A stretch of 64,000 nucleotides of DNA from Alphaproteobacteria bacterium (GTDB lineage Bacteria > Pseudomonadota > Alphaproteobacteria > UBA828). Of the stretch, positions 7,795-58,529 are shown piece after piece. The notes beneath the pieces are model-generated. The model searched no databases. It was not told where the DNA came from and was given only the letters and a program-made list of their open reading frames with translations. How positions within the stretch are numbered: position 1 is the stretch's first letter; each line of letters begins with the position of its first letter. The DNA lies in contig CBDEFM010000002.1 in the NCBI GenBank assembly GCA_965237415.1, forward strand, positions 1,792,001-1,856,000, read 5' to 3'. The position numbers were made by a program, and so were the translations under genes.

Positions 7795-8014
7795 AAGTGG
7801 TATTCCGCGGGGACAACCGCCCGCCGTCCTCCATGACCACGGCGGGGACTGCGGGCGGCCGCATTCCCTGCCTTCGCCTGCCGCCGCCCCGTTCGCTCTT
7901 GCGCTGTATGGCACGGCAATTGCGCCGGCGGCACGCAGACCGCGGCCGCGGTGAGACATCCGGGCCGCACGATGAGACGGGCGCGCGTCTGCCTGGTCGC
8001 GGCGGAGGAGGAGC

Positions 8015-8060
8015 CCCCCGCCTCACCCTGGCCCGCTCCACTCCGCAGGGCAGAAGGGAG
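8015..8060. repeat. Degenerate REP-like palindromic repeat (CCTCACCC...GGAG type)
   Basis: Similar to the palindrome at 45130-45176. Confidence 0.55.
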
Positions 8061-8813
8061 GGTCGGTCGGCCAGAGTCGGCCTTCCACCTCCCGCCGTCT
8101 CAGCTCAGCATCCCGCGCCCCGTGCGCGTCCCACGCGTCCTGTGCACCGTCGCCGGCAGGCGACTCGGACGTGGGGTCCGGCGGGGTGACGTGGGAGTCA
8201 GCGGGAGAGGCGGCGGCCCACCCGAATGCCGCCGGCGGCGGGTCTGTGCCCCCAGGGAAGAGGTGCCCCTCCATGGCCCGGCGGACGGTCTCGACCCGTT
8301 CGGCATGCGTCATAGTGGCCGCGCGCGCGGCCGGCCCGGCGTGCGCGGCGGCGGCATCGGCCTTCGCCTGCTCGCGCTCGACGCGGAGCCTGTCGGCGGC
8401 TTCGATGCGGTAGAGCCCGAGCGCGAGGCGGGCGAGGTCCTCCGTCGATACCGGTTCCGCGCGCTTGCCGAGCTCGGCCATCGTAACCAGAGCCAGCGTT
8501 CGCAGGGTCTCGATCGCGATGAGGGCGCTAAGCCCCTCGGCGCGGGGGTCGCGCGTGCGCTCCCATTCCTCGGCAAAGCGATCGGTCTCGCGCTGCAGGC
8601 AGATCAGGCCGTCCATGCGCTCGGCCCAGCGGCCCTCGGCGGGTCGCGCACGCGCGCAGTGTCGATGACGGTCCAAAAGTGCGCCTATTCGCTGCATTCA
8701 GCACGTGAGTGCGGTGACGATGTAGCAGCTTGTTTGGCGGGTGGAAGCGTGCCTCGTCGGAGCTGTGGATAGGCGGCTTGTCGCAGCGACCGCCCTCGTC
8801 TATGGACGCCCCC

Positions 8814-9070
8814 GGTAATGCAAGCTTTTCTTTGAACGGCACGGTGCATGCGGTCAGGTGCTGTCGTCTATCCGGCCTGTTGATGCGGCATTTCGATCGC
8901 CGCTGGCCCGTATGGAGATACGCGAACCGGGTCCAAAATCGAGTCTGCGAGCTTGAACGCTCTCAGGACGGTGCTGGTTTTCCCGATCCGGTCTCATTGA
9001 CCGTATGCCCTCCTTACCTGTCCTCCGACCTGCCCACATCCCCGACGGCTTCCCGCGATTGTCCGCCCTG
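8814..9070 (-). ncRNA. Putative IS110 bridge/seek RNA (ends approximate)
   Basis: Non-coding 3' region holds segments matching both halves of the reconstructed target (8965-8972, 8939-8947) and of the donor junction (8912-8918, 8864-8871). Confidence 0.7.
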
Positions 9071-10096
9071 TCAGGCGGTTGCGGGAACCCGATAGATCTC
9101 CTTCTTCGCCGTCACCGCCCAGGCGACGCGCGCCATTTTGTTGGCCAGCGCAACCGCGACGAGCATCTTCGGCTTGCGCGCCAGCATTTCGGCCAGCCAA
9201 GGATCCCTCGTCTCGCCACCACGGCGCTCCGCCGCTTGGATTACAGACATGGCACCCGTGATCAAGAGCCGCCTGAGATCGCGCTGGCCCATCTTCGATA
9301 CCTTGCCAAGCCTTGGCTTGCCGCCAGTCGTATGCTGTCGCGGCACGAGGCCTAGCCAGGCGGCGAAGTCGCGCCCGCGCCTGAAGCTCTCCATCGGTGG
9401 GGCGAAAGCCTGTACTGCCATGGCCGTGATCGGCCCGATGCCCGGGATCGTCATGAGCCGTGCCGCCTCTTCGTCCTGGCGTGCGCAAACGCGGAGCTCC
9501 TTCTCCAAATCGTAGATCTTCGCATCGAGGTCTGAGACCTGACCGAGCAGTAGGTCACCCAGCTCGCGAACCGGCTCCGGTAGCCCCGAGCTCGGATCCA
9601 TGAGTGCCGCCTCCAGCCGCTTGACATGAGCTGGCCCCTGTGGAGCGATGACGCCGAACTCCGCCAGGTGACCCCGTAGCGCGTTAATCGTCTGCGTGCG
9701 CTGGCGCACCAGGAGGTCGCGTGTGCGGAACAGCATCCCTCGAGCCTGCTGCTCTTCCGTCTTCACGGCCACCAAGCTCATGGTGGGGCGCTGCGCGGCC
9801 TCGCAAGTCGCCTCCGCGTCCCTCGCGTCATTTTTCTGCCGTTTGACGAATGGCTTGACATATATCGGTGGGATTAGCTTGACCTCGTGTCCGAGCATCT
9901 CGGTCTCTCTACCCCAATAGTGAGCGCTCGCGCAGGCCTCCATCGCCACCACGCAGGGCGGTTGCGAGGCGAGGAAGTCGAGTAGCTTGCCCCGGCTCAG
10001 CTTCTTGCGGAACACAACGGACCCGTCTGCCCGCGCACCATGCAACTGAAAGCTGTGCTTCGCCAGATCGATCCCGATGATGCTAGCCTGATCCAT
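9071..10096 (-). CDS. IS110-family recombinase/transposase
   Basis: IGIDLAK (DEDD RuvC-like), MEAC, KNDARDAEA, IPGIGPITA, WLGLVPRQHTTGGK; ATG at 10096 with GGAGG upstream. Confidence 0.95.
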   Translation of the reverse strand: MDQASIIGIDLAKHSFQLHGARADGSVVFRKKLSRGKLLDFLASQPPCVVAMEACASAHYWGRETEMLGHEVKLIPPIYVKPFVKRQKNDARDAEATCEAAQRPTMSLVAVKTEEQQARGMLFRTRDLLVRQRTQTINALRGHLAEFGVIAPQGPAHVKRLEAALMDPSSGLPEPVRELGDLLLGQVSDLDAKIYDLEKELRVCARQDEEAARLMTIPGIGPITAMAVQAFAPPMESFRRGRDFAAWLGLVPRQHTTGGKPRLGKVSKMGQRDLRRLLITGAMSVIQAAERRGGETRDPWLAEMLARKPKMLVAVALANKMARVAWAVTAKKEIYRVPATA

Positions 10097-10441
10097 GGAG
10101 GCCTCCTCCCTCAGGTGGTTCGACACCACCACCTTGGCACGATTCGCTGCCGTCGGGAGGGGGCGTCCACTCCCTCGAGTCTGGCAAGGCAAGCCGGCTA
10201 TCCACAGCGGGCAGGCGTCGCGATTCCGGTGGCGGCGGGCGAACTGGCGGCAGCCCCTCGGACCTGAACAGCAAGATCGGTAGGGCTACACTCGGGCCGC
10301 TGAGAACGATGCGGCGCCGGCCACGTCTGCTTGGTGGCAAGAGCCGGCGCCGCACCCCCCGAGCCATGCTCGGCACGGCCCAGATGCACAGTATCGTGCG
10401 GGTTTTGGCGGGGGTCGAGCCCGTTCTCATCGACCGCCGCG

Positions 10442-10888
10442 ATGAGGAACTTCGGCCGCCTGTTCAACTGCGCCCACTGCGATCGGCAGGTGGTTCTCTG
10501 CCCGCGCTGCGACCACGGCAACATGTACTGCTCAGCGGACTGCCGCGAGACGGCGCGCAGGCAGGCGCAGCGTCTTTGCGGGCAGCGCTATCAGGACAGC
10601 CTCCAGGGTCGTCGCAAGCACGCGCAGCGGCAGCAGCGCTATCGCGATCGGCACCGGCGTCGGGTGCCGGAGAATGAGGTCTGCGCGCAGAAAGTGACGC
10701 ATCACCCTTTGACCCGCGGGCACCGTCGTCCTGTTGTGCCACAGACGCCGATGACGCGTCGCGGGACACAACCCTTTGGGCACGGGCGGCCTGCCAGGGT
10801 CTTCCGCTGCCATCGCTGCGGCCGGTTCTGCGCGCAGTTTGTCCATCCGGGCCTGCGCCCGGTCCGGCATCCGGCACGAGAAGGGTGA
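10442..10888 (+). CDS. IS21 passenger ORF, Cys-rich putative Zn-binding, Arg-rich protein
   Basis: CAHC, CPRC, YCSADC and terminal CHRCGRFC; stop 1 nt before the istA start. Confidence 0.65.
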   Translation: MRNFGRLFNCAHCDRQVVLCPRCDHGNMYCSADCRETARRQAQRLCGQRYQDSLQGRRKHAQRQQRYRDRHRRRVPENEVCAQKVTHHPLTRGHRRPVVPQTPMTRRGTQPFGHGRPARVFRCHRCGRFCAQFVHPGLRPVRHPAREG

Positions 10889-10889
10889 G

Positions 10890-12395
10890 ATGACCATCGA
10901 CAAGAAGACGCGCGCGGAGATCCTGCGCCTCCATTACGCCGAGAAGTGGAAGATCGGCACGATCGCAAACCAACTCGGCGTCCATCACATCACGGTCCGC
11001 CGCGTTCTGGCCGACGACGGGGTGCCTCGGCATATGAGGCGGCACCGGCGCTCGAAGCTCGATCCCTTCATGCCCTTCATCCGCCAGACACTGGCTCACT
11101 ATCCGAAGCTGACCGCCAGCCGGCTCTACGAGATGGCGTGCGAGCGCGGCTACCAGGGGAGCCAGAGCCACTTCCGCAACATGATCGCCCCCGAGCGGCC
11201 GAAGCCTGTGGCCGAGGCCTATCTGCGTCTCAAGACCCTTCCCGGCGAGCAGGCCCAGGTCGATTGGGGACACTTCGGCAAAGTGAAGCTCGGTCGCGCG
11301 GAGCGCCCGCTGATGGGCTTCGTGATGGTTCTGAGCTTCTCGCGACGCATCTTCCTGCGCTTCTACCTCAACGCCGCGATGAGCAACTTCCTGCGTGGCC
11401 ATATCGACGCCTTCGAGGCGTGGCAGGGCGTGCCCCGCGAGCTCTGGTACGACAACCTGAAGAGCGTCGTGCTGGAGCGCCGCGGCGACGCCATCCGCTT
11501 CAATCCCCAGTTCCTCGACTTCGCCGGCCACTACCGTTTCCTGGCACAGCCCGTCGCGATCGCGCGCGGCAATGAGAAGGGGCGCGTGGAACGGGCGATA
11601 CGCTACGCTCGCGACAGCTTCTTCGCCGCTCGCTCATGGCGCGATATCGACGACCTCAACGCCCAGGCCCAGGCCTGGTGCGATGGCATCGCCGCCGAGC
11701 GGCCCTGGCCCGAAGACCACTCCATCAGCGTGCGCGAGGCCTTCGAGCGGGAACGCAGCTCTCTCATTGCGCTGCCCGGCGATCGCTTCCCCGCCGACGA
11801 ACGGGTCGAGGCCTCCATCGGCAAGACCCCTTACGTCAGATTCGACCTCAACGACTACAGCGTGCCGCACACCCATGTGAGCCGCACTCTCGTCGTCCTC
11901 GCGACCCTCGACGAGGTGCGCATCCTCGACGGCGCGGACGTCATCGCCACCCATCCACGCAGCTTCGACAAGGCAGAGCGTGTCGAAAACCCCGACCACA
12001 TCGCCGGCCTGGTCAGGCACAAGCGTCATGCCCGGCGCCTTCGCGGGCAGGATCGGCTGGTCCAGGCCGCGCCCAACAGCGAGCGCCTGCTCACCGACGC
12101 CGCCAAGCGCGGCAGCAATCTCGGCACCATCGTCGCCGCCCTACTGCGCCTCCTCGACGGGTACGGCGCCGCCGAGCTCGAGGCGGGCATCGACGAGGCC
12201 CTGAAGCGCGGCGTCCCCCATCCGAACGCCGTGCGCCTGAGCCTGGCCCGGCGGCGCGAACTGCGAGACGAGCCCCCGCCCATCCCCGTCGACCTGCCCA
12301 AGCATCCACGCCTGCGCGATATCGCGGTGCGCGACCACGATCTCGGCGGATACGACGGACTGGCCGGTGGGCCCGAAGAGGACAGCGAAGAATGA
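10890..12395 (+). CDS. istA: IS21 transposase
   Basis: N-terminal [32 protein letters not shown]. Confidence 0.95.
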
Positions 12396-13201
12396 CCGAC
12401 ACCCTCAAGGACCGTGCCCGCGCGCTGCGCCTGTACGGCCTCATCGCCCACTGGGACGACATCGGCGAGTGCAGCTGGCTGCCCACCCTCATCGCCTGGG
12501 AAGAGGAAGAACGGCGAAGCCGCAGCCTCAAGCGGCGCCTCAGCGAGGCCCGCATTGGACACTTCAAGCCCCTCGTCGACTTCGATTGGGACTGGCCCCG
12601 CCGCTGCGACCCAATGGTCATCGAGGACCTCATGAGCCTCGAGTTCCTGCGCGAGGCCGCCAACGTCGTCCTCGTCGGCCCAAACGGGGTGGGCAAGTCC
12701 ACCATCGCCGCCAACCTCGCCCACCGCGCCATCATCGAGGGGCACACCGTGCGCTTCACAACTGCAGGAAACATGCTCGGTGAGCTCGCCGCCCTCGATA
12801 GCGACAGCCTGCTCCAGCGCAAGCTCCGATTCTACGCCCGCCAACAGCTGCTGGTGATCGACGAGGTCGGCTACCTCTCCTATAGCAATCGCCATGCCGA
12901 TCTGCTGTTCAATATCGTCTCCAGCCGCAGCCAGCAGCGCTCCACCATAATCACCACAAACCGGCCCTTCGCCGAGTGGAGCGAAGCCTTCCCCAACGCC
13001 GCCTGCGTCGTCGCCCTCGTCGACCGCCTCATCCACAACGCCGAGATCATCGCCATCGACGGCGATTCCTATCGCCGAAAGGAGGCCGAGGAACGCCAGA
13101 AGAAGCGCAGCGCAGAGCGCCGCCGCCGCCGGGGCGCAGCAGGCCGTCGGCGAGCCGGAAAGGCCGACGCCCTGGACCGCGAGCCGCCGTCGGCGGCGTA
13201 G
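12392..13201 (+). CDS. istB: IS21 helper ATPase
   Basis: Walker A GPNGVGKS, LLVIDEVGYL, TTNRPFAEW, DRLIH, GDSYR; ATGA overlap with istA. Confidence 0.95.
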   Translation: MTDTLKDRARALRLYGLIAHWDDIGECSWLPTLIAWEEEERRSRSLKRRLSEARIGHFKPLVDFDWDWPRRCDPMVIEDLMSLEFLREAANVVLVGPNGVGKSTIAANLAHRAIIEGHTVRFTTAGNMLGELAALDSDSLLQRKLRFYARQQLLVIDEVGYLSYSNRHADLLFNIVSSRSQQRSTIITTNRPFAEWSEAFPNAACVVALVDRLIHNAEIIAIDGDSYRRKEAEERQKKRSAERRRRRGAAGRRRAGKADALDREPPSAA

Positions 13202-13744
13202 TCATAGATCGTCTCTCGCCATGGTACGGGCGGGTGCAGGCCGAGACCCTGAGAGCCTATCCCCTCGAAGGCGTCGCGCGATCCCTCGGCTACCGCCGCG
13301 ACCCCGATGTCGATGACGCACCCTGGAGGCACCTCGGATTGATCGTCAGCATCAACCGCCGACCACGTCCAACTCCAGAAATGCAGCAAATACGCGCATT
13401 CCTAAGCCGTCGCTAACACGCGCAGCGTCGTGCGCGCGGGATCAAAGGCGAACGGTCGCCGCCCCGCGCACGGACGCGCGCCACGATCTCGTCCATGGTG
13501 GAGCCGTCCTCGATGGCTGCGGTCACGGCGTCCTGGATTGCGGCCGGCAGCGGCTCGTCCGATGAGCAGTCCCCGCCCATCGCACCTGCCGTGCCCGGCG
13601 TGCTCTCGCACTGCATGACGCGATCCTGGCGCGCGCGCCGAGCACCGTGCACCGCACCATGGTCCGTCGCCCGCGCCCGCAGGGTCGCGGGCGCGGTATC
13701 AGGGTCCCGTGCGACGCCGACCATGACCGCGAGAAAATTCCGGG

Positions 13745-14800
13745 CTAGAGGCGGAGGCGTTCTCGCGTGAGATGGATGAGGCGGGCGAGGCCGTGCGGCT
13801 CGACGATCAGGATCACGATGATGAAGCCGCCGAAGATAATGACCTCGAGATGCTTGGCGAGGTCGACGGGAAAGTCGATGCCGAGCATCGTGTTCAGGTT
13901 GGTGAGGAAGATCGGCACGACGGTGATGAAGGCCGCGCCGATGATGGAGCCCGCGATCGAGCCGAGGCCGCCGACGATGACCATGAAGAGCACGAGGAAG
14001 GAGAGGTTGACGTCGAAGGCGAGCGTCTCGGCGCTGCCCAGATAGAGGAAGACGAAGAGCGAGCCCGCGACGCCGCAGAGATAGGAGCTCACGGCGAAGG
14101 CGAGAAGCTTGGTGCGGAGCAGCGGGATACCCACGATCTCGGCGGCCACGTCCATGTCGCGCACCGCCATCCAGGCGCGGCCGAAGCGGCTGCGCATCAG
14201 GTTGCGGGCGAAGAAGACGAAGACCGCGACGAAGACCAGCGCCACCAGATAGCGCACCTCGGCGGCCGCCTCCGGCCCGGTGATCATGACGCCCGCGAAT
14301 TTGCGCGGCGGTGCCGTGATCGTGCCGGACGGGTTGTCGTTGTAGAACCAGGGCACCCGGTTGAAGAGCCAGATCAGGAAGAACTGCGCCGCGAGCGTCG
14401 CCACCGCCAGATAGAAGCCCTTGATGCGCAGGCTCGGCAGGCCGAACAGGATGCCGACGCCGGCGGCGAAGAAGCCCGAGATGAAGAAGATGGCGATGAT
14501 GTCGACCCCGGGCCACGCGGTCGTCATCTTGTAGGTGGCGTAGGCGCCGACCGCCATGAAGCCGCCGGTGCCGAGCGAGAGCTGGCCTGCGAAGCCGGTG
14601 AGCAGATTGAGCCCGAGCGCCGCGAGCGCGAATATCAGGAAGGGGATCAGGATCGCCTGCAGCCAGTACTCGTTCGCGAGCGTCGGCACCGCGAAGAGGG
14701 CGAGCAGCGTGATCACGGTCACGAAGACGGTATCGATCGAGCGCGAGCGGGTCGCGAAGAGGGCGTTGCAGAGGTCGGTGAAATAGGCGCGCACGGTCAC
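13745..14800 (-). CDS. Branched-chain amino acid-type ABC permease (LivM-like)
   Basis: LNLLTGFAGQLSLG, LRIKGFYLAVATLA, GRAWMAVRD; GTG start overlaps the upstream stop. Confidence 0.88.
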   Translation of the reverse strand: MTVRAYFTDLCNALFATRSRSIDTVFVTVITLLALFAVPTLANEYWLQAILIPFLIFALAALGLNLLTGFAGQLSLGTGGFMAVGAYATYKMTTAWPGVDIIAIFFISGFFAAGVGILFGLPSLRIKGFYLAVATLAAQFFLIWLFNRVPWFYNDNPSGTITAPPRKFAGVMITGPEAAAEVRYLVALVFVAVFVFFARNLMRSRFGRAWMAVRDMDVAAEIVGIPLLRTKLLAFAVSSYLCGVAGSLFVFLYLGSAETLAFDVNLSFLVLFMVIVGGLGSIAGSIIGAAFITVVPIFLTNLNTMLGIDFPVDLAKHLEVIIFGGFIIVILIVEPHGLARLIHLTRERLRL

Positions 14801-55344: not shown

Positions 55345-56622
55345 CACCGACGCCACCCACCGAACTCGACACCGCATCGACCATCTCGGCGAAGAGCCCG
55401 CGCTCGGGACTTTCTCTCCCTCTGCCGGTGCTGTGTTGACTTGCTTTGCTGAGCACCCCACCGTTGCCGCCATGCTTTTCTCGAGTCGCAACGCTGTCGG
55501 GATGCTTCGGGATGTCGCTTCCTAAACGGCTGGCGTTTGCAAAGCTCGCTGGTAACGCGACACGGCTCCAACGGCATGGACTGCTCTGTAGTCACCGACG
55601 TCGAAACGACACTTTCGATTCATGCGTGGCGGCTGGTCTGATGGTATGCCCGAAATTCAACGAAGCGGAGTTCGCAACCATCCATCTGCCGGAGTTGGCG
55701 GATCGCCGCGCTCCCTAGCCACGCCCATTACCGCCGACCGACTCACTCTGCTGAGGAACGCGACACCATGAGACGCCAAATCGGATCCCTTCACTCAATC
55801 GCAATGCTCCTGGTGGTTGGCAGCTTGTCAGGGGTCCTGTCCGCTTGTGGCGGCGGATCCGACGGAGGGCCGCCGTCGTCGTCGCGTCCAGCGATACCCC
55901 AGGATGTTGCCGAGGCGCTCGATGTGGCGATCGACGCGGATCCTGCGTCGACGGCACCGGACTTGCTGGACGCGGAGGGCTCGGGGGCGCCCGCGGATGC
56001 ATCCGCACTCGAGGAAACGGCTGACGCGGTTGGAACCCGAATCGATGGCTGGGACGACAATGTGTACGTGCGAATGAACGAGGCGGATTCGACCGATACG
56101 TTCATAATCTACAGCAACAAGGACGAGCCAACGCCCACGCCGTTTTACATGGTCCACGCGCTCGACAACAGTGATTCCTTGATCCTCGACACCTCTAACG
56201 TCGGATTGGTCAGCGGTGTGGCCGAGTTCCCATCGGCGGTCAATCAGGTGGATGTGCTGTTCATGGCCGACGCCGAGTTTGCGGGCAGGTTCCACGGCGC
56301 GCCGGGCACCTATACGTGCGTCTCGATGTGCAGCCTCTCAACAAATATGAACGGCGCGCTGGCCGAGGTAGGCGGCGTTTGGCGATTCGCACCTGACGAT
56401 AATGAGTTCCTGGTGCCGGTAGAGGACAGCGACTACGTCCATTTCGGCTACTGGATGCATGAATCCGAAGCGAACGGCGACCCCATCATCATGGTCGGCG
56501 CCATTGCCGGCGGCACCGCAGAGTCCGCAATCGGCACCGTTCAAGACCTTGAGATCGTGTCCCGGCGCGTGGTGTAAGAGCGTTGCGCTCTACGCGGCTC
56601 CCGGCGGGTAGGGCCGGGACGT

Positions 56623-57819
56623 TCAGGCTGCCACGGTGGGCAGCGTGATGGGGACACCATCGCGCAGCGGAGCGATGGATTCCAGCGTCATGTATCTCCT
56701 TGAGACGGCCCACTCGTCGTTCTGCTCGAGAAGGATGGCACCGACGAGCCGTGTGATAGCGGCTTCGTTGGGAAAGATACCGACGACGTTGGTGCGGCGC
56801 TTGACCTCGGCATGGAGCCGTTCGATCGGGTTGGTCGAATGCAATTTCTGGCGGTGCTCCCTGGGGAAGCTCATGTAGGCGAGGACGTCGTGCTCGGCTT
56901 CGTCCATGAGAACTGCCAGCTTGGGCACCTTGGGCCTGAGTTGGTCGGCGACCTGGCGCCACTGGGCCTTGGCGCTGTCGGCGTCCTCCTGGGCGAAGGC
57001 GGTGGCGACGAAGGCGGAGACGACGCGCCGGCCCTGCCTGCCGGCATGGGCCAGCAGGTTGCGGGCGAAGTGCACGCGGCAGCGCTGCCATGTGGCGCCG
57101 AGGATCCGGGTCGCGGCGGCCTTCAGGCCCTTGTGGTCGTCGGAGATCACCAGCTTCACGCCGCGCAGCCCGCGCCGGGCCAGCGAGCGCAGGAACTCGG
57201 TCCAAAAGATCTCGGCCTCCGACGCGCCGATCGCCACGCCCAGGACCTCGCGGCGGCCTTGGTCGTTGACGGCCACAGCCACAGTCACCGCGACCGAGAC
57301 GATGCGCCCGGCCTCGCGCACCTTCAAATAAGTCGCATCCAGCCACAGATAGGGCCAGTCGCCCTCCAGCGGTCGATCGAGGAAGCCGTTGACCTTATCG
57401 TCGATCTCGCCGCACAGCCTGGAGACCTGGCTCTTGGAGACGCCCGACATCCCCATCGCCTGAACCAGATCGTCGACCGAGCGGGTCGATACGCCCTGGA
57501 TGTAGGCCTCCTGGATCACCGCAGCCAGCGCCTTCTCGGCCATCCGCCGCGGCTCCAGGAAGCCCGGGAAGTAGCTCCCCTTCCTCAGCTTCGGGATCTT
57601 CAGCTCCACCGTGCCCGCCCGCGTTTCCCAGCGTCGCTCGCGATAGCCGTTGCGATGGGTGATACGATCCGCCGAGCGCTCGCCGTGCCCGGCGCCGGTC
57701 AGGCCCTCGACCTCCAGTGCCATCAGCCGCTCGGCCGTGAAGCCGATCATCTCGCGAAGCAGATCGGCATCGGAGCTCTTCTCCAAAAGCGCGCGCAGGG
57801 TCATCATGTCCTGGGTCAT
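56623..57819 (-). CDS. IS256-family transposase
   Basis: [42 protein letters not shown]. Confidence 0.96.
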
Positions 57820-57887
57820 CGTGGTTCTCCTTCGGGTCAGGTTGGTTCGCTCTAGCCCAACCCTAAACCGGAACCGCGATGGCCTCC

Positions 57888-57955
57888 GCTGTGGATAGCC
57901 GGCTTGCCTACGCCAGACTCTCGGCGGTCGCTACAGCAAGCCGCCTACCCACAGC
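57888..57955. repeat. 68-bp hairpin shared with the IS21 leader (8762-8798 + 10178-10208)
   Basis: GCTGTGGATAGCCGGCTTG...CAAGCCGCCTACCCACAGC; first 22 nt identical to the reverse complement of the IS21 copy. Confidence 0.85.
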
Positions 57956-58529
57956 TAACAGAGGCTCCAACAACTCCTACACCACGTCCTGGGACACGAC
58001 CACCTTGAGGGCCGCGCGAGCTACAGGGGGGCGGCTACAGGTGTCTACGTGACAAGGACATACACGTTGGACGGTGAAGTCGATAGACGGAGAGGCGGCC
58101 AGTTTACCGCCGACGCAATGCTCACTGCCACGTTTGGCGGTGGCAGCGTGCCGACCAACGACCACTACTCGATCATCGGCTCAATCGACAACTTCAGGAG
58201 CAGAAACGGCAGATCCATCGACTCCAGTTGGAGTCTCGACCTGGAGGCAGCGTCGTTCGACAGTCAACAAGGCGGTGATCTCACAGGCACGAACGGCAAC
58301 GTGTTCAGCGGCGCGACCGTGGGCGATCGACGCTTGACGGGCGCCTGGAACGGCCGCTTCTTCGGACCCGTCGTCGTCGACAACGATGACGCGATGCGAG
58401 GCAACCAGTCCACGTTCCCGTCCGGCGTCGCCGGGACTTTCAGCGGCCATTTCACGAACGGTGCCGTCCTCGGCGCCTTCGGCGCGGAGATCGCCGACTG
58501 ACGCAAGCCCGCGCCGGCGGGCGTTCCCC

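Follow-up and report, generated by a model that had tools for sequence, protein, structure and literature searches.

The stretch of 64,000 nucleotides analysed here (assembly GCA_965237415.1 of an alphaproteobacterium, contig CBDEFM010000002.1, positions 1,792,001 to 1,856,000; hereafter the window) contains an imperfect palindrome of 68 nt that occurs in insertion sequences (IS) of two different families. One copy is intact and lies at 57888-57955 inside an IS256-family element of 1,448 bp (56554-58001, minus strand). The second copy lies inside an IS21-family element on the plus strand (8660-13418; 4,759 bp including a nested element) and consists of two halves, 8762-8798 and 10178-10208, separated at the apex by an IS110-family element of the IS1111 group, 1,379 bp long (8799-10177, minus strand). 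The left half comprises the 5' arm and the left part of the loop and ends at a CTCG core, and the right half comprises the right loop part and the 3' arm, both read on the plus strand; CTCG is present at both junctions (8795-8798 and 10174-10177). Both halves were recognised by reading the sequence and by a search with the arm pattern, and intact homologues are known: the uninterrupted form of this site occurs in IS21 relatives of other genomes (loci L035, L146 and L159). A preliminary description of this DNA had reported the split 68-bp hairpin in the IS21 element and the similar 68-mer in the IS256 element, their position near the left end and in sense orientation in both elements, the loop difference and the presence of the 9-mer CTATCCACA in the stem; coordinates, sequences and orientations are all confirmed by the present analysis.

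The 19-nt arm pattern GCTGTGGATAGSCGGCTTG has four matches in the window, at 8762-8780 and 57888-57906 on the plus strand and at 10190-10208 and 57937-57955 on the minus strand. Shuffled versions of the window contained 0.02 matches on average, and none of 100 shuffles reached four. The copy at 57888-57955 is reverse-complemented on the plus strand, its sense strand being the minus strand, and its orientation relative to its own transposase is the same as that of the IS21 copy. The loops differ, with ACCGCC-GAG-AGTCTG in the IS256 copy versus ACCGCC-CTCG-AGTCTG in the IS21 copy. The anatomy is solid.

The IS256-family element, whose boundaries were determined by genome BLAST, is flanked by an 8-bp duplication (ACCTTGAG at 56546-56553 and 58002-58009). 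It has the Mutator-type DDE transposase (56623-57819, minus strand; PF00872 at 4e-122, NF033543), the terminal inverted repeats and the 8-bp duplication expected of this family. In this element the hairpin is found 46 nt inside the left end and 68 nt upstream of the ATG. In most relatives it follows directly after the 27-nt left inverted repeat, which is GGTCGTGTCCC...GTGGTGTAGGA in the window (57975-58001, minus strand; sequence comparison and leader fold), with 19 additional nt between the two in the window element. Behind the hairpin, IS256 leaders carry GG.GG(T/C)CATCG, followed by a small hairpin and then by a Shine-Dalgarno site. Comparison of the flanks with those of relatives places GGCCATCG just 3' of the window hairpin (57877-57884, minus strand). 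The relatives have GGTCATCG at this position, the exact complement of CGATGACC at the start codon, and in a fold of the whole leader the left repeat pairs with the translation start region. IS256 relatives on plasmids of Sinorhizobium, Mesorhizobium and Pseudorhizobium carry at this place a hairpin with another sequence, a Sphingobium relative has yet another one, and one Roseomonas and one Pseudomonas relative have no hairpin at this site. Because relatives carry other hairpins or none there, the site behind the IS256 left repeat contains, on these comparisons, a fast-evolving and dispensable structured insert. The three IS256 hairpin types have short motifs in common (GGTA, GTAGCG).

Two aberrant IS256 left ends are worth mentioning. 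Another IS256 copy of the same genome (C2:3045814-3047162), 97.8% identical, breaks off within the palindrome, giving way to unrelated sequence after the first 14 nt of the 5' hairpin arm. At L059:2496-3900 an IS110 relative is found 11 nt on the 3' side of an IS256 hairpin, and the joint is at the anti-start sequence GGCCATCG. The IS256 leader is not continued in the right flank of this relative, so that the joint is either rearranged or off-target.

For the intact copy, the sense RNA has a folding energy of -44.1 kcal/mol (z = -5.1), and sense RNA folds better than antisense RNA in all four pairs compared. A search for compensatory changes, which the preliminary description had proposed, was carried out on an alignment of 38 sequences, out of 42 distinct ones in sense; L036, L096 and L159, which have insertions, and L152, which has a decayed 3' arm, were left out. 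In this alignment 97.7% of the cells form standard pairs, and 14 of the 23 pairs have changed on both sides. None of 500 shuffles reached the observed values, and sliding the 3' partner by 1-3 columns left only 28-49% paired. The outer stem was partly fixed by the pattern used in a public scan (see below), and three loci retrieved with a covariance model instead (L146, L148 and L158) show compensated changes in the outer stem too. On the sense strand, G-T wobbles are seen at 11 pair columns versus A-C at 3 columns. By a binomial estimate this asymmetry is suggestive but not decisive; related sequences lack independence. Both IS families retain the unpaired apical motifs GCAGCGACCG and GAGTCTGGC. 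Their conservation although they are unpaired points to a sequence-specific use of the apex. On the strength of these patterns we lean towards the view that the hairpin acts in cis as a structure of the sense strand of the transposase leader, most likely as RNA.

The preliminary description had also noted a DnaA-like box at the stem ends. The hairpin could then be a host-factor site at the DNA level, in which DnaA boxes (TTATCCACA) couple transposition to replication, or serve DnaA-dependent single-strand priming in copy-out replication. DnaA-box hairpins are known as priming signals and IS50 uses DnaA, and a host factor would account for the use of the hairpin by unrelated transposases. The strand asymmetry described above is also compatible with a folded single DNA strand, and a perfect TTATCCACA is found in the 3' arm of many variants. 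However, the public-scan pattern forced the outer stem, so that conservation of TTATCCACA there is uninformative. Among the 21 loci found with the covariance model, the 9-mer is perfect in about half and has at least two mismatches in 6. Compensated stem changes keep the pairing and break the box: L146 reads CTATCAACA, L158 is altered and L148 is without any box. The 9-mer is also absent from L160, an intact IS256 copy (transposase match over residues 1-398), and the different hairpins at the same place in the Sinorhizobium, Mesorhizobium, Pseudorhizobium and Sphingobium relatives contain no box. The window copies themselves read CTATCCACA and CTACCCACA, and by simple arithmetic a 9-mer with at most one mismatch is expected about 1,000 times in 4.7 Mb. 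Across homologous hairpins it is thus the pairing that is kept and not the 9-mer as a sequence. The DnaA-box claim did not survive this comparison, and a DnaA-type host-factor site appears very improbable to us. A leader structure of the sense strand remains our preferred explanation.

The distribution of the hairpin bears on whether it belongs to IS at all. The genome from which the window is taken has 4.75 Mb in 2 contigs, with 66.7% G+C. A search of it for the arms with up to 3 mismatches gave ten hairpin loci, all inside IS, six of them intact and four interrupted or reduced to a half. Three intact hairpins lie in IS256 elements, and three intact variants lie in a third IS described below. 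Three others are split by the IS110-family element, and at the tenth locus a left half is joined to a truncated copy of that element; all four IS110-associated loci are IS21 left ends. In addition, the search gave two solitary arms without a pairing partner, each with 3 mismatches. A covariance-model search of this genome, as suggested in the preliminary description, was run with a model built from 20 hairpins and with E values up to 1; it returned the same six intact loci, all IS-borne, and nothing else among the 150 candidates scored of about 7,900 first-look candidates. A generic repetitive extragenic palindromic sequence (REP) or bacterial interspersed mosaic element (BIME) would have many extragenic copies across a genome, which is not what was found: the ten loci are IS-borne. 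The hairpin is thus not a generic genomic REP here, a possibility that the preliminary description had raised against its own reading.

In a scan of public species-representative genomes with a pattern that fixes the outer stem, at least 106 loci with 24 distinct sequences were found, mostly in metagenome-assembled genomes labelled Alphaproteobacteria, plus Azospirillum and Roseomonas. An IS256-type transposase starts 69-135 nt downstream on the same strand in 88 of the 106 loci listed. The other listed loci comprise 8 at a contig or locus edge, where the context is not assessable, one IS21 relative with an intact hairpin (L035) and 9 other contexts, of which 6 are IS256 left ends cut by other insertions. 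Within the order, the covariance model detected the hairpin in 16 of 49 genomes. Among the 21 model-found loci inspected, 8 have an IS256 transposase downstream; L144, L145, L146, L158 and L159 are IS21 relatives (IstA 78-94% identical), L150 has IS21-like flanks, and L148, L149 and L152 have other or unclear contexts. Locus L142 was considered as a further IS21-type context and rejected, being a copy of IS256 in which an IS21-like piece is nested; by likeness, L157 and L147 were interpreted in this way too.

A few of these copies stand apart. The most diverged hairpin is that of L148 (L148:1501-2848), in which the outer stem has been fully replaced by compensation and the apex is kept. It lies 21 nt upstream of a 419-aa open reading frame (ORF) of no known family, with flanks that are not IS-like, and the ORFs adjoining the stand-alone hairpins L148 and L149 gave no Pfam or NCBIfam match. 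At L089:707-1756 a hairpin directly follows the stop codon of another IS110-family transposase, with flanks unlike those of IS256 or IS21.

Copies of this kind could be taken to mean that the hairpin is a small mobile or insertional palindrome, similar to a REP or to a MITE (miniature inverted-repeat transposable element), that lands in IS leaders. Such an origin could explain why the similarity between families has its limits close to the stem base, why IS256 relatives carry this hairpin, another one or none at the same site, and why there are a few copies outside IS256 and IS21 contexts (L023, L089, L148 and L149). Against it, the own genome has no stand-alone copies and they are rare elsewhere (3 of the 106 loci listed, plus 2-3 of the 21 model-found ones). 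Neither a target duplication nor terminal repeats of its own are visible. The motifs GGTA and GTAGCG common to the three IS256 hairpin types are as expected from divergence in place, and in IS21 and in the third IS the similarity extends past the stem into leader and repeat sequence of IS256, which fits better with the capture of a fragment. The miniature mobile unit proposed in the preliminary description has little evidence in its favour, and we regard a mobile palindrome as quite improbable.

The hairpin does not seem to be catalogued, which was another point raised in the preliminary description. No Rfam family matched in 8000-14000, and in 56400-58200 the sole match on the hairpin was a chance hit of a miRNA model (23.6 bits versus a gathering score of 63). 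No description of an IS256 leader hairpin was found in the literature, in a search that did not cover ISfinder or the supplementary target lists of PMC11187229.

How the hairpin came to be in an IS21 element can be approached from the sequences around it. The window element has istA (10776-12395 as listed ORF; IS21 model match) and istB (12392-13201; PF01695), both on the plus strand. Its NF033546 match scores 253 bits, its termini are TGT...ACA, and a short 7-bp duplication, CGCGCAG, is present at 8653-8659 and 13419-13425; the boundaries come from genome BLAST. From the left end to the start of the hairpin there are 102 nt, and all seven elements of the IS21 lineage (IstA 78-94% identical) have exactly this distance from the TGT end. 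A profile of the IS256 left end aligns to the IS21 elements past the limits of the hairpin. In the IS21 element of this genome 17 of 21 nt 3' of the hairpin match the IS256 leader, a match that fades in other IS21 copies, and AGGCGT upstream of the IS21 hairpin is common with the inner part of the IS256 repeat.

The third IS of this genome offers a parallel. It is 1,883 bp long, has 34-bp terminal inverted repeats (TIR) and a 555-aa ORF of the rve type with weak matches to IS21 and IS481 models, and occurs in three copies (L107:19-1901, corresponding to C1:651318-653200, and two further ones on C2). An IS256-like repeat with the hairpin is present 110-227 nt inside one of its ends, antisense to its ORF. 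The sole relative found, in another genome, is 74% identical and shares the terminal repeats, and the segment with the IS256-like repeat and the hairpin is absent from it. Because the similarity extends past the hairpin, and because this relative lacks the segment, the hairpins of both IS21 and the third IS can be read as captured IS256 left ends. The IS21 hairpin thus looks like a captured fragment of an IS256 left end that comprised the hairpin with the inner repeat part on one side and some 20 nt on the other. From the same comparisons we read the capture in the third IS as recent and that in IS21 as old and maintained. The cross-family cis module suggested in the preliminary description is therefore upheld in part: the hairpin is common to IS256 and IS21 and is IS-borne, but it is mainly a leader element of one IS256 clade, of which left-end fragments were apparently captured by other IS.

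It could be argued that the hairpins outside IS256 are neutral scars of old nested IS256 insertions, kept by template switching and used by the IS110-family element as a mere repeat. Insertions nested in one another abound in these genomes, the 34-bp-TIR element has a relative without the fragment, and the composite of IS21 and IS110 spreads despite its split hairpin. Against this, identity within the IS21 lineage is 0.74-0.80 in hairpin windows versus 0.56-0.62 in neighbouring non-coding sequence, and up to 0.83-0.86 in coding sequence. In addition, all seven IS21-lineage stems are still fully or almost fully paired and their unpaired apical motifs are kept, and template switching does not conserve loop sequence. 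We consider a neutral scar unlikely.

Another possibility is suggested by the hairpins co-resident in this genome. The stem of its IS21 element, including a G-G mismatch, is near-identical to the stem of the co-resident IS256 element, whereas in the loop it agrees with the other IS21 copies. Since the loop follows the IS family and the stem is common to co-resident copies, there may be ongoing exchange or a common trans-acting partner. The hairpin would then be a portable and selected cis-regulatory module exchanged between unrelated IS families residing in the same genome, and the guides of IS1111 elements would evolve against its apex as a safe harbour. We find this scenario doubtful, and retain as the preferred explanation a leader structure of the IS256 clade that was passed to IS21 by capture.

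The apex of the IS21 hairpin is the target of the IS110-family element. This element has matches to PF01548 (4e-15), PF02371 (5e-23) and NF033542 (1e-95, above its cut-off) in a transposase of the DEDD (RuvC-like) type, with the C-terminal domain of IS110 transposases, encoded at 9071-10096 on the minus strand, with an ATG at 10096 preceded by GGAGG. It has subterminal inverted repeats of 11 nt, TGGACGCCCCC at 8803-8813 and GGGGGCGTCCA at 10159-10169, within the size of about 11-13 bp that characterises the IS1111 group. Its non-coding sequence amounts to 272 nt downstream of the transposase gene (8799-9070, minus strand) versus 81 nt upstream (10097-10177). According to PMC11187229, IS1111 elements have subterminal inverted repeats and a long non-coding region 3' of the transposase gene. 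The terminal extensions given there are 7 and 3 bp; the element described here differs in having 4 (TCTA) and 8 nt (CTCCCTCG), or another split of these 12 nt depending on how CTCG is assigned.

By its position 3' of the transposase gene and the guide segments that it contains, the region 8799-9070 presumably encodes the seekRNA or bridge RNA. Three candidate guides, all on the minus strand, can be read in it. The first (8939-8947) is identical over 9 nt to the core and right target flank (TCGAGTCTG on the plus strand). The second (8965-8972), found by aligning non-coding regions against flanks, is complementary to the left target flank ACCGCCCT with 8 pairs including one G-U. The third (8864-8871) is a donor guide of 8 nt corresponding to the core and the element's own end (TCGTCTAT). 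The 3' region of the window element was compared with those of 10 relatives, 76-81% identical, from the same genome and four others. In 10 of the 11 aligned elements the right-flank guide fits the element's own right flank, giving 9 distinct guide-target pairs; the exception is L059, the right flank of which is apparently rearranged. The left-flank guide follows the left flank in most relatives, and the donor guide covaries with the terminal 4 nt (TCTA, TCTG or TGTG). The statement of the preliminary description that the hairpin is the target of an RNA-guided IS110 element is borne out by these three matching segments and their covariation, and RNA-guided recognition of ACCGCC-CTCG-AGTCTG at the apex of the hairpin is well supported by the sequence comparison. 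Two IS110 relatives of the same genome, 76-78% identical, have unrelated targets that are not hairpins, with guides changed to fit (C2:3700935-3702305 and C2:3660209-3661587; L108 and L109).

This genome has three full copies and one partial copy of the IS110-family element of the window, all in the hairpin site. All four IS21 left ends are occupied by it, and none of the six hairpins with other loops. The IS256-type loop (GAG) has no CTCG core and mismatches both target guides, and the loop variant of the third IS (ATG) is also without the core. It is plausible that the IS256-type loop escapes the IS110-family element in this way. Elsewhere such insertions were not encountered. The junction pattern of this element in the hairpin was found in the own genome only among 401 genomes of the class, the best match in a plasmid collection was 68% identical, the best relative in 21 genomes of the genus was 82% identical, and inspection of the flanks of 28 IS110 relatives showed none in a hairpin. 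In five other genomes rich in IS110 relatives, 119 of 127 left halves (33-nt pattern, at most one mismatch) continue into the right loop, according to an exact pattern (2-5 nt, AGTCTGG). Of the remaining 8, 7 are rows with one mismatch, which lie beyond the reach of an exact pattern; no split copy was encountered. The 119 continuous copies include 14 IS256 copies with the exact CTCGAG site. By these counts IS110-family elements do not use the hairpin as a general hot spot.

Loci L117, L122, L126, L130, L131, L133 and L136, in other genomes, concern a different target. There a many-copy IS110 relative targets a short repeat, GGGGGTCA | ATTTTGGACGCC..., that recurs beside itself and has a REP-like look.

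These findings can be combined in a single scheme. The 68-nt stem-loop, which is constrained in its structure, belongs to the left-end leader of an alphaproteobacterial IS256 clade. The leader consists of the left inverted repeat, the hairpin, about 70 nt with the anti-start sequence, the small hairpin and the Shine-Dalgarno site, and the ATG of the transposase. Transposase RNAs entering from the left end, by read-through or from a circle-junction promoter, would have the hairpin at their 5' end, where it might shape transcript stability or translation together with the pairing between the repeat and the start codon. A fragment of the IS256 left end would have been built into one IS21 lineage, the hairpin being retained while its flanks decayed. 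An IS1111-group element would in turn recognise the conserved apex by means of guides in its 3' non-coding RNA and recombine at the CTCG core. For the IS256 family (ISCth4 and IS256), PMC7780238 reports a promoter that arises at the circle junction and has its -10 half in the left repeat. By analogy, junction transcripts of the present clade would start a few nt before the hairpin; no -10-like hexamer was recognisable in the GC-rich left repeat of the window IS256.

Several observations weigh against this scheme. Scans for promoters and terminators around both hairpins placed nothing; in particular, no terminator-like site (a GC-rich hairpin with a T run, as in intrinsic terminators) was found in 57700-58100 or 8600-11000. 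The G-T asymmetry is equally compatible with a folded sense strand of DNA, and template switching at DNA palindromes can yield changes that look compensatory without selection. The IS21 hairpin lies 230 nt before the first ORF, without a fixed short distance to a start codon, so that an identical leader function in the two families is not obvious. Near-identical stems with different loops in the co-resident IS21 and IS256 elements are not explained by a simple one-time capture. As to the targeting, all copies of the IS110-family element may derive from one insertion followed by transposition of the composite, in which case the occupation of four out of four sites is not a set of independent events. 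Two full copies of the IS21::IS110 composite have different target duplications, so that a split hairpin does not stop IS21 from moving. Finally, contigs from RNA libraries show presence only, with no 5' end, strand or level, and carry-over of DNA is possible.

Such contigs do exist for the window. Thirteen rows recorded as RNA hold part of it, and contigs from four metatranscriptome runs of four studies (Logan) cover the IS256 element with its hairpin and stop at 58001, as is usual for repeats in assemblies. In one metatranscriptome contig the flanks of the IS256 element (window 56544-58004) are joined, with 3 other letters between them; this is an empty site, so that the sample contains a close relative lacking this insertion. 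Sequences complementary to the loop were also sought in the IS256 and IS21 elements, which gave chance 7-mers only.

Regulation by a leader structure has precedents. IS10 and IS50 are known for fold-back inhibition of transposase translation, and ompA-type mRNAs for stabilising 5'-terminal stem-loops. The IS256 leader is similar to those of IS10 and IS50 in having a structure just inside the IS end, and in the complementarity of its repeat and post-hairpin sequence to the start region, which by analogy would silence transcripts reading in from outside. It is different in that the large 21-bp hairpin itself does not cover the ribosome site. A role in stability or processing is suggested. With REP/BIME sequences and MITEs the hairpin has in common that it is a GC-rich imperfect palindrome of 65-70 nt used by IS110-family elements. 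Unlike them, it is not extragenic, it has a low copy number and it is almost always within an IS, in a fixed place and orientation.

For the insert too, comparable systems are known. The IS1111-attC group targets integron attC sites. As in the IS1111 group generally, the element in the window has a DEDD transposase, subterminal repeats and a predicted guide RNA in the 3' non-coding region. It also resembles that group in using one fixed target, repeated, often palindromic and situated in or beside other mobile DNA, and in causing no target duplication. It differs from the known cases in that its target is the apex of a leader hairpin within an IS21 element, and such a target was not found in the literature searched. 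IS4321 and IS5075 target the terminal repeats of Tn21-family transposons (PMC11187229), and ISPpu9, ISPpu10 and IS621 are described as inserting in REP palindromes. The target and the leader element add to kinds already described, RNA-guided IS1111 elements in palindromes or in other mobile elements being known; the case is one of mobile elements nested in each other and not a new kind of system.

The window thus provides a natural example of an RNA-guided IS1111/IS110 element in which target, donor and three candidate guides are readable and covary across relatives. The putatively escaping loop of IS256 could serve as a natural "resistant" target variant for studying the rules that core and guides follow in these recombinases. 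The hairpin itself is an uncatalogued structured element that covaries strongly and belongs to the leader of a widespread IS256 clade of alphaproteobacteria. It is of interest because, apart from IS10, IS50 and the IS3-type elements, little is known of how IS restrict or time their expression. More generally, pieces of one IS can turn into permanent constituents of another, which calls for caution when function is inferred from motifs shared across families.

The IS21 element contains a further conserved feature. Between the hairpin and istA lies a Cys-rich ORF of about 149 aa from its ATG, most likely at 10439-10888 on the plus strand. The stop-to-stop frame of 189-194 aa is open in all seven IS21-lineage elements and encodes Cys pairs (CxxC...CxxC). 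No Pfam or NCBIfam match was obtained for 10439-10888; the product is possibly a zinc-finger protein with an accessory role in this IS21 lineage. An ORF of 122 aa at 10309-10677 seemed conserved as well; it is Arg/Pro-rich and its counterparts in relatives vary from 57 to 266 aa, and it was dropped for the other frame. Near the left end of the IS21 element, an ORF on the minus strand (8023-8697) has a weak match, below cut-off, to phage Mu Gp27. The IS21 element itself lies within another repeat (8000-8659 and 13419-13700) that is found, 82-88% identical, at five or more other places of the genome.

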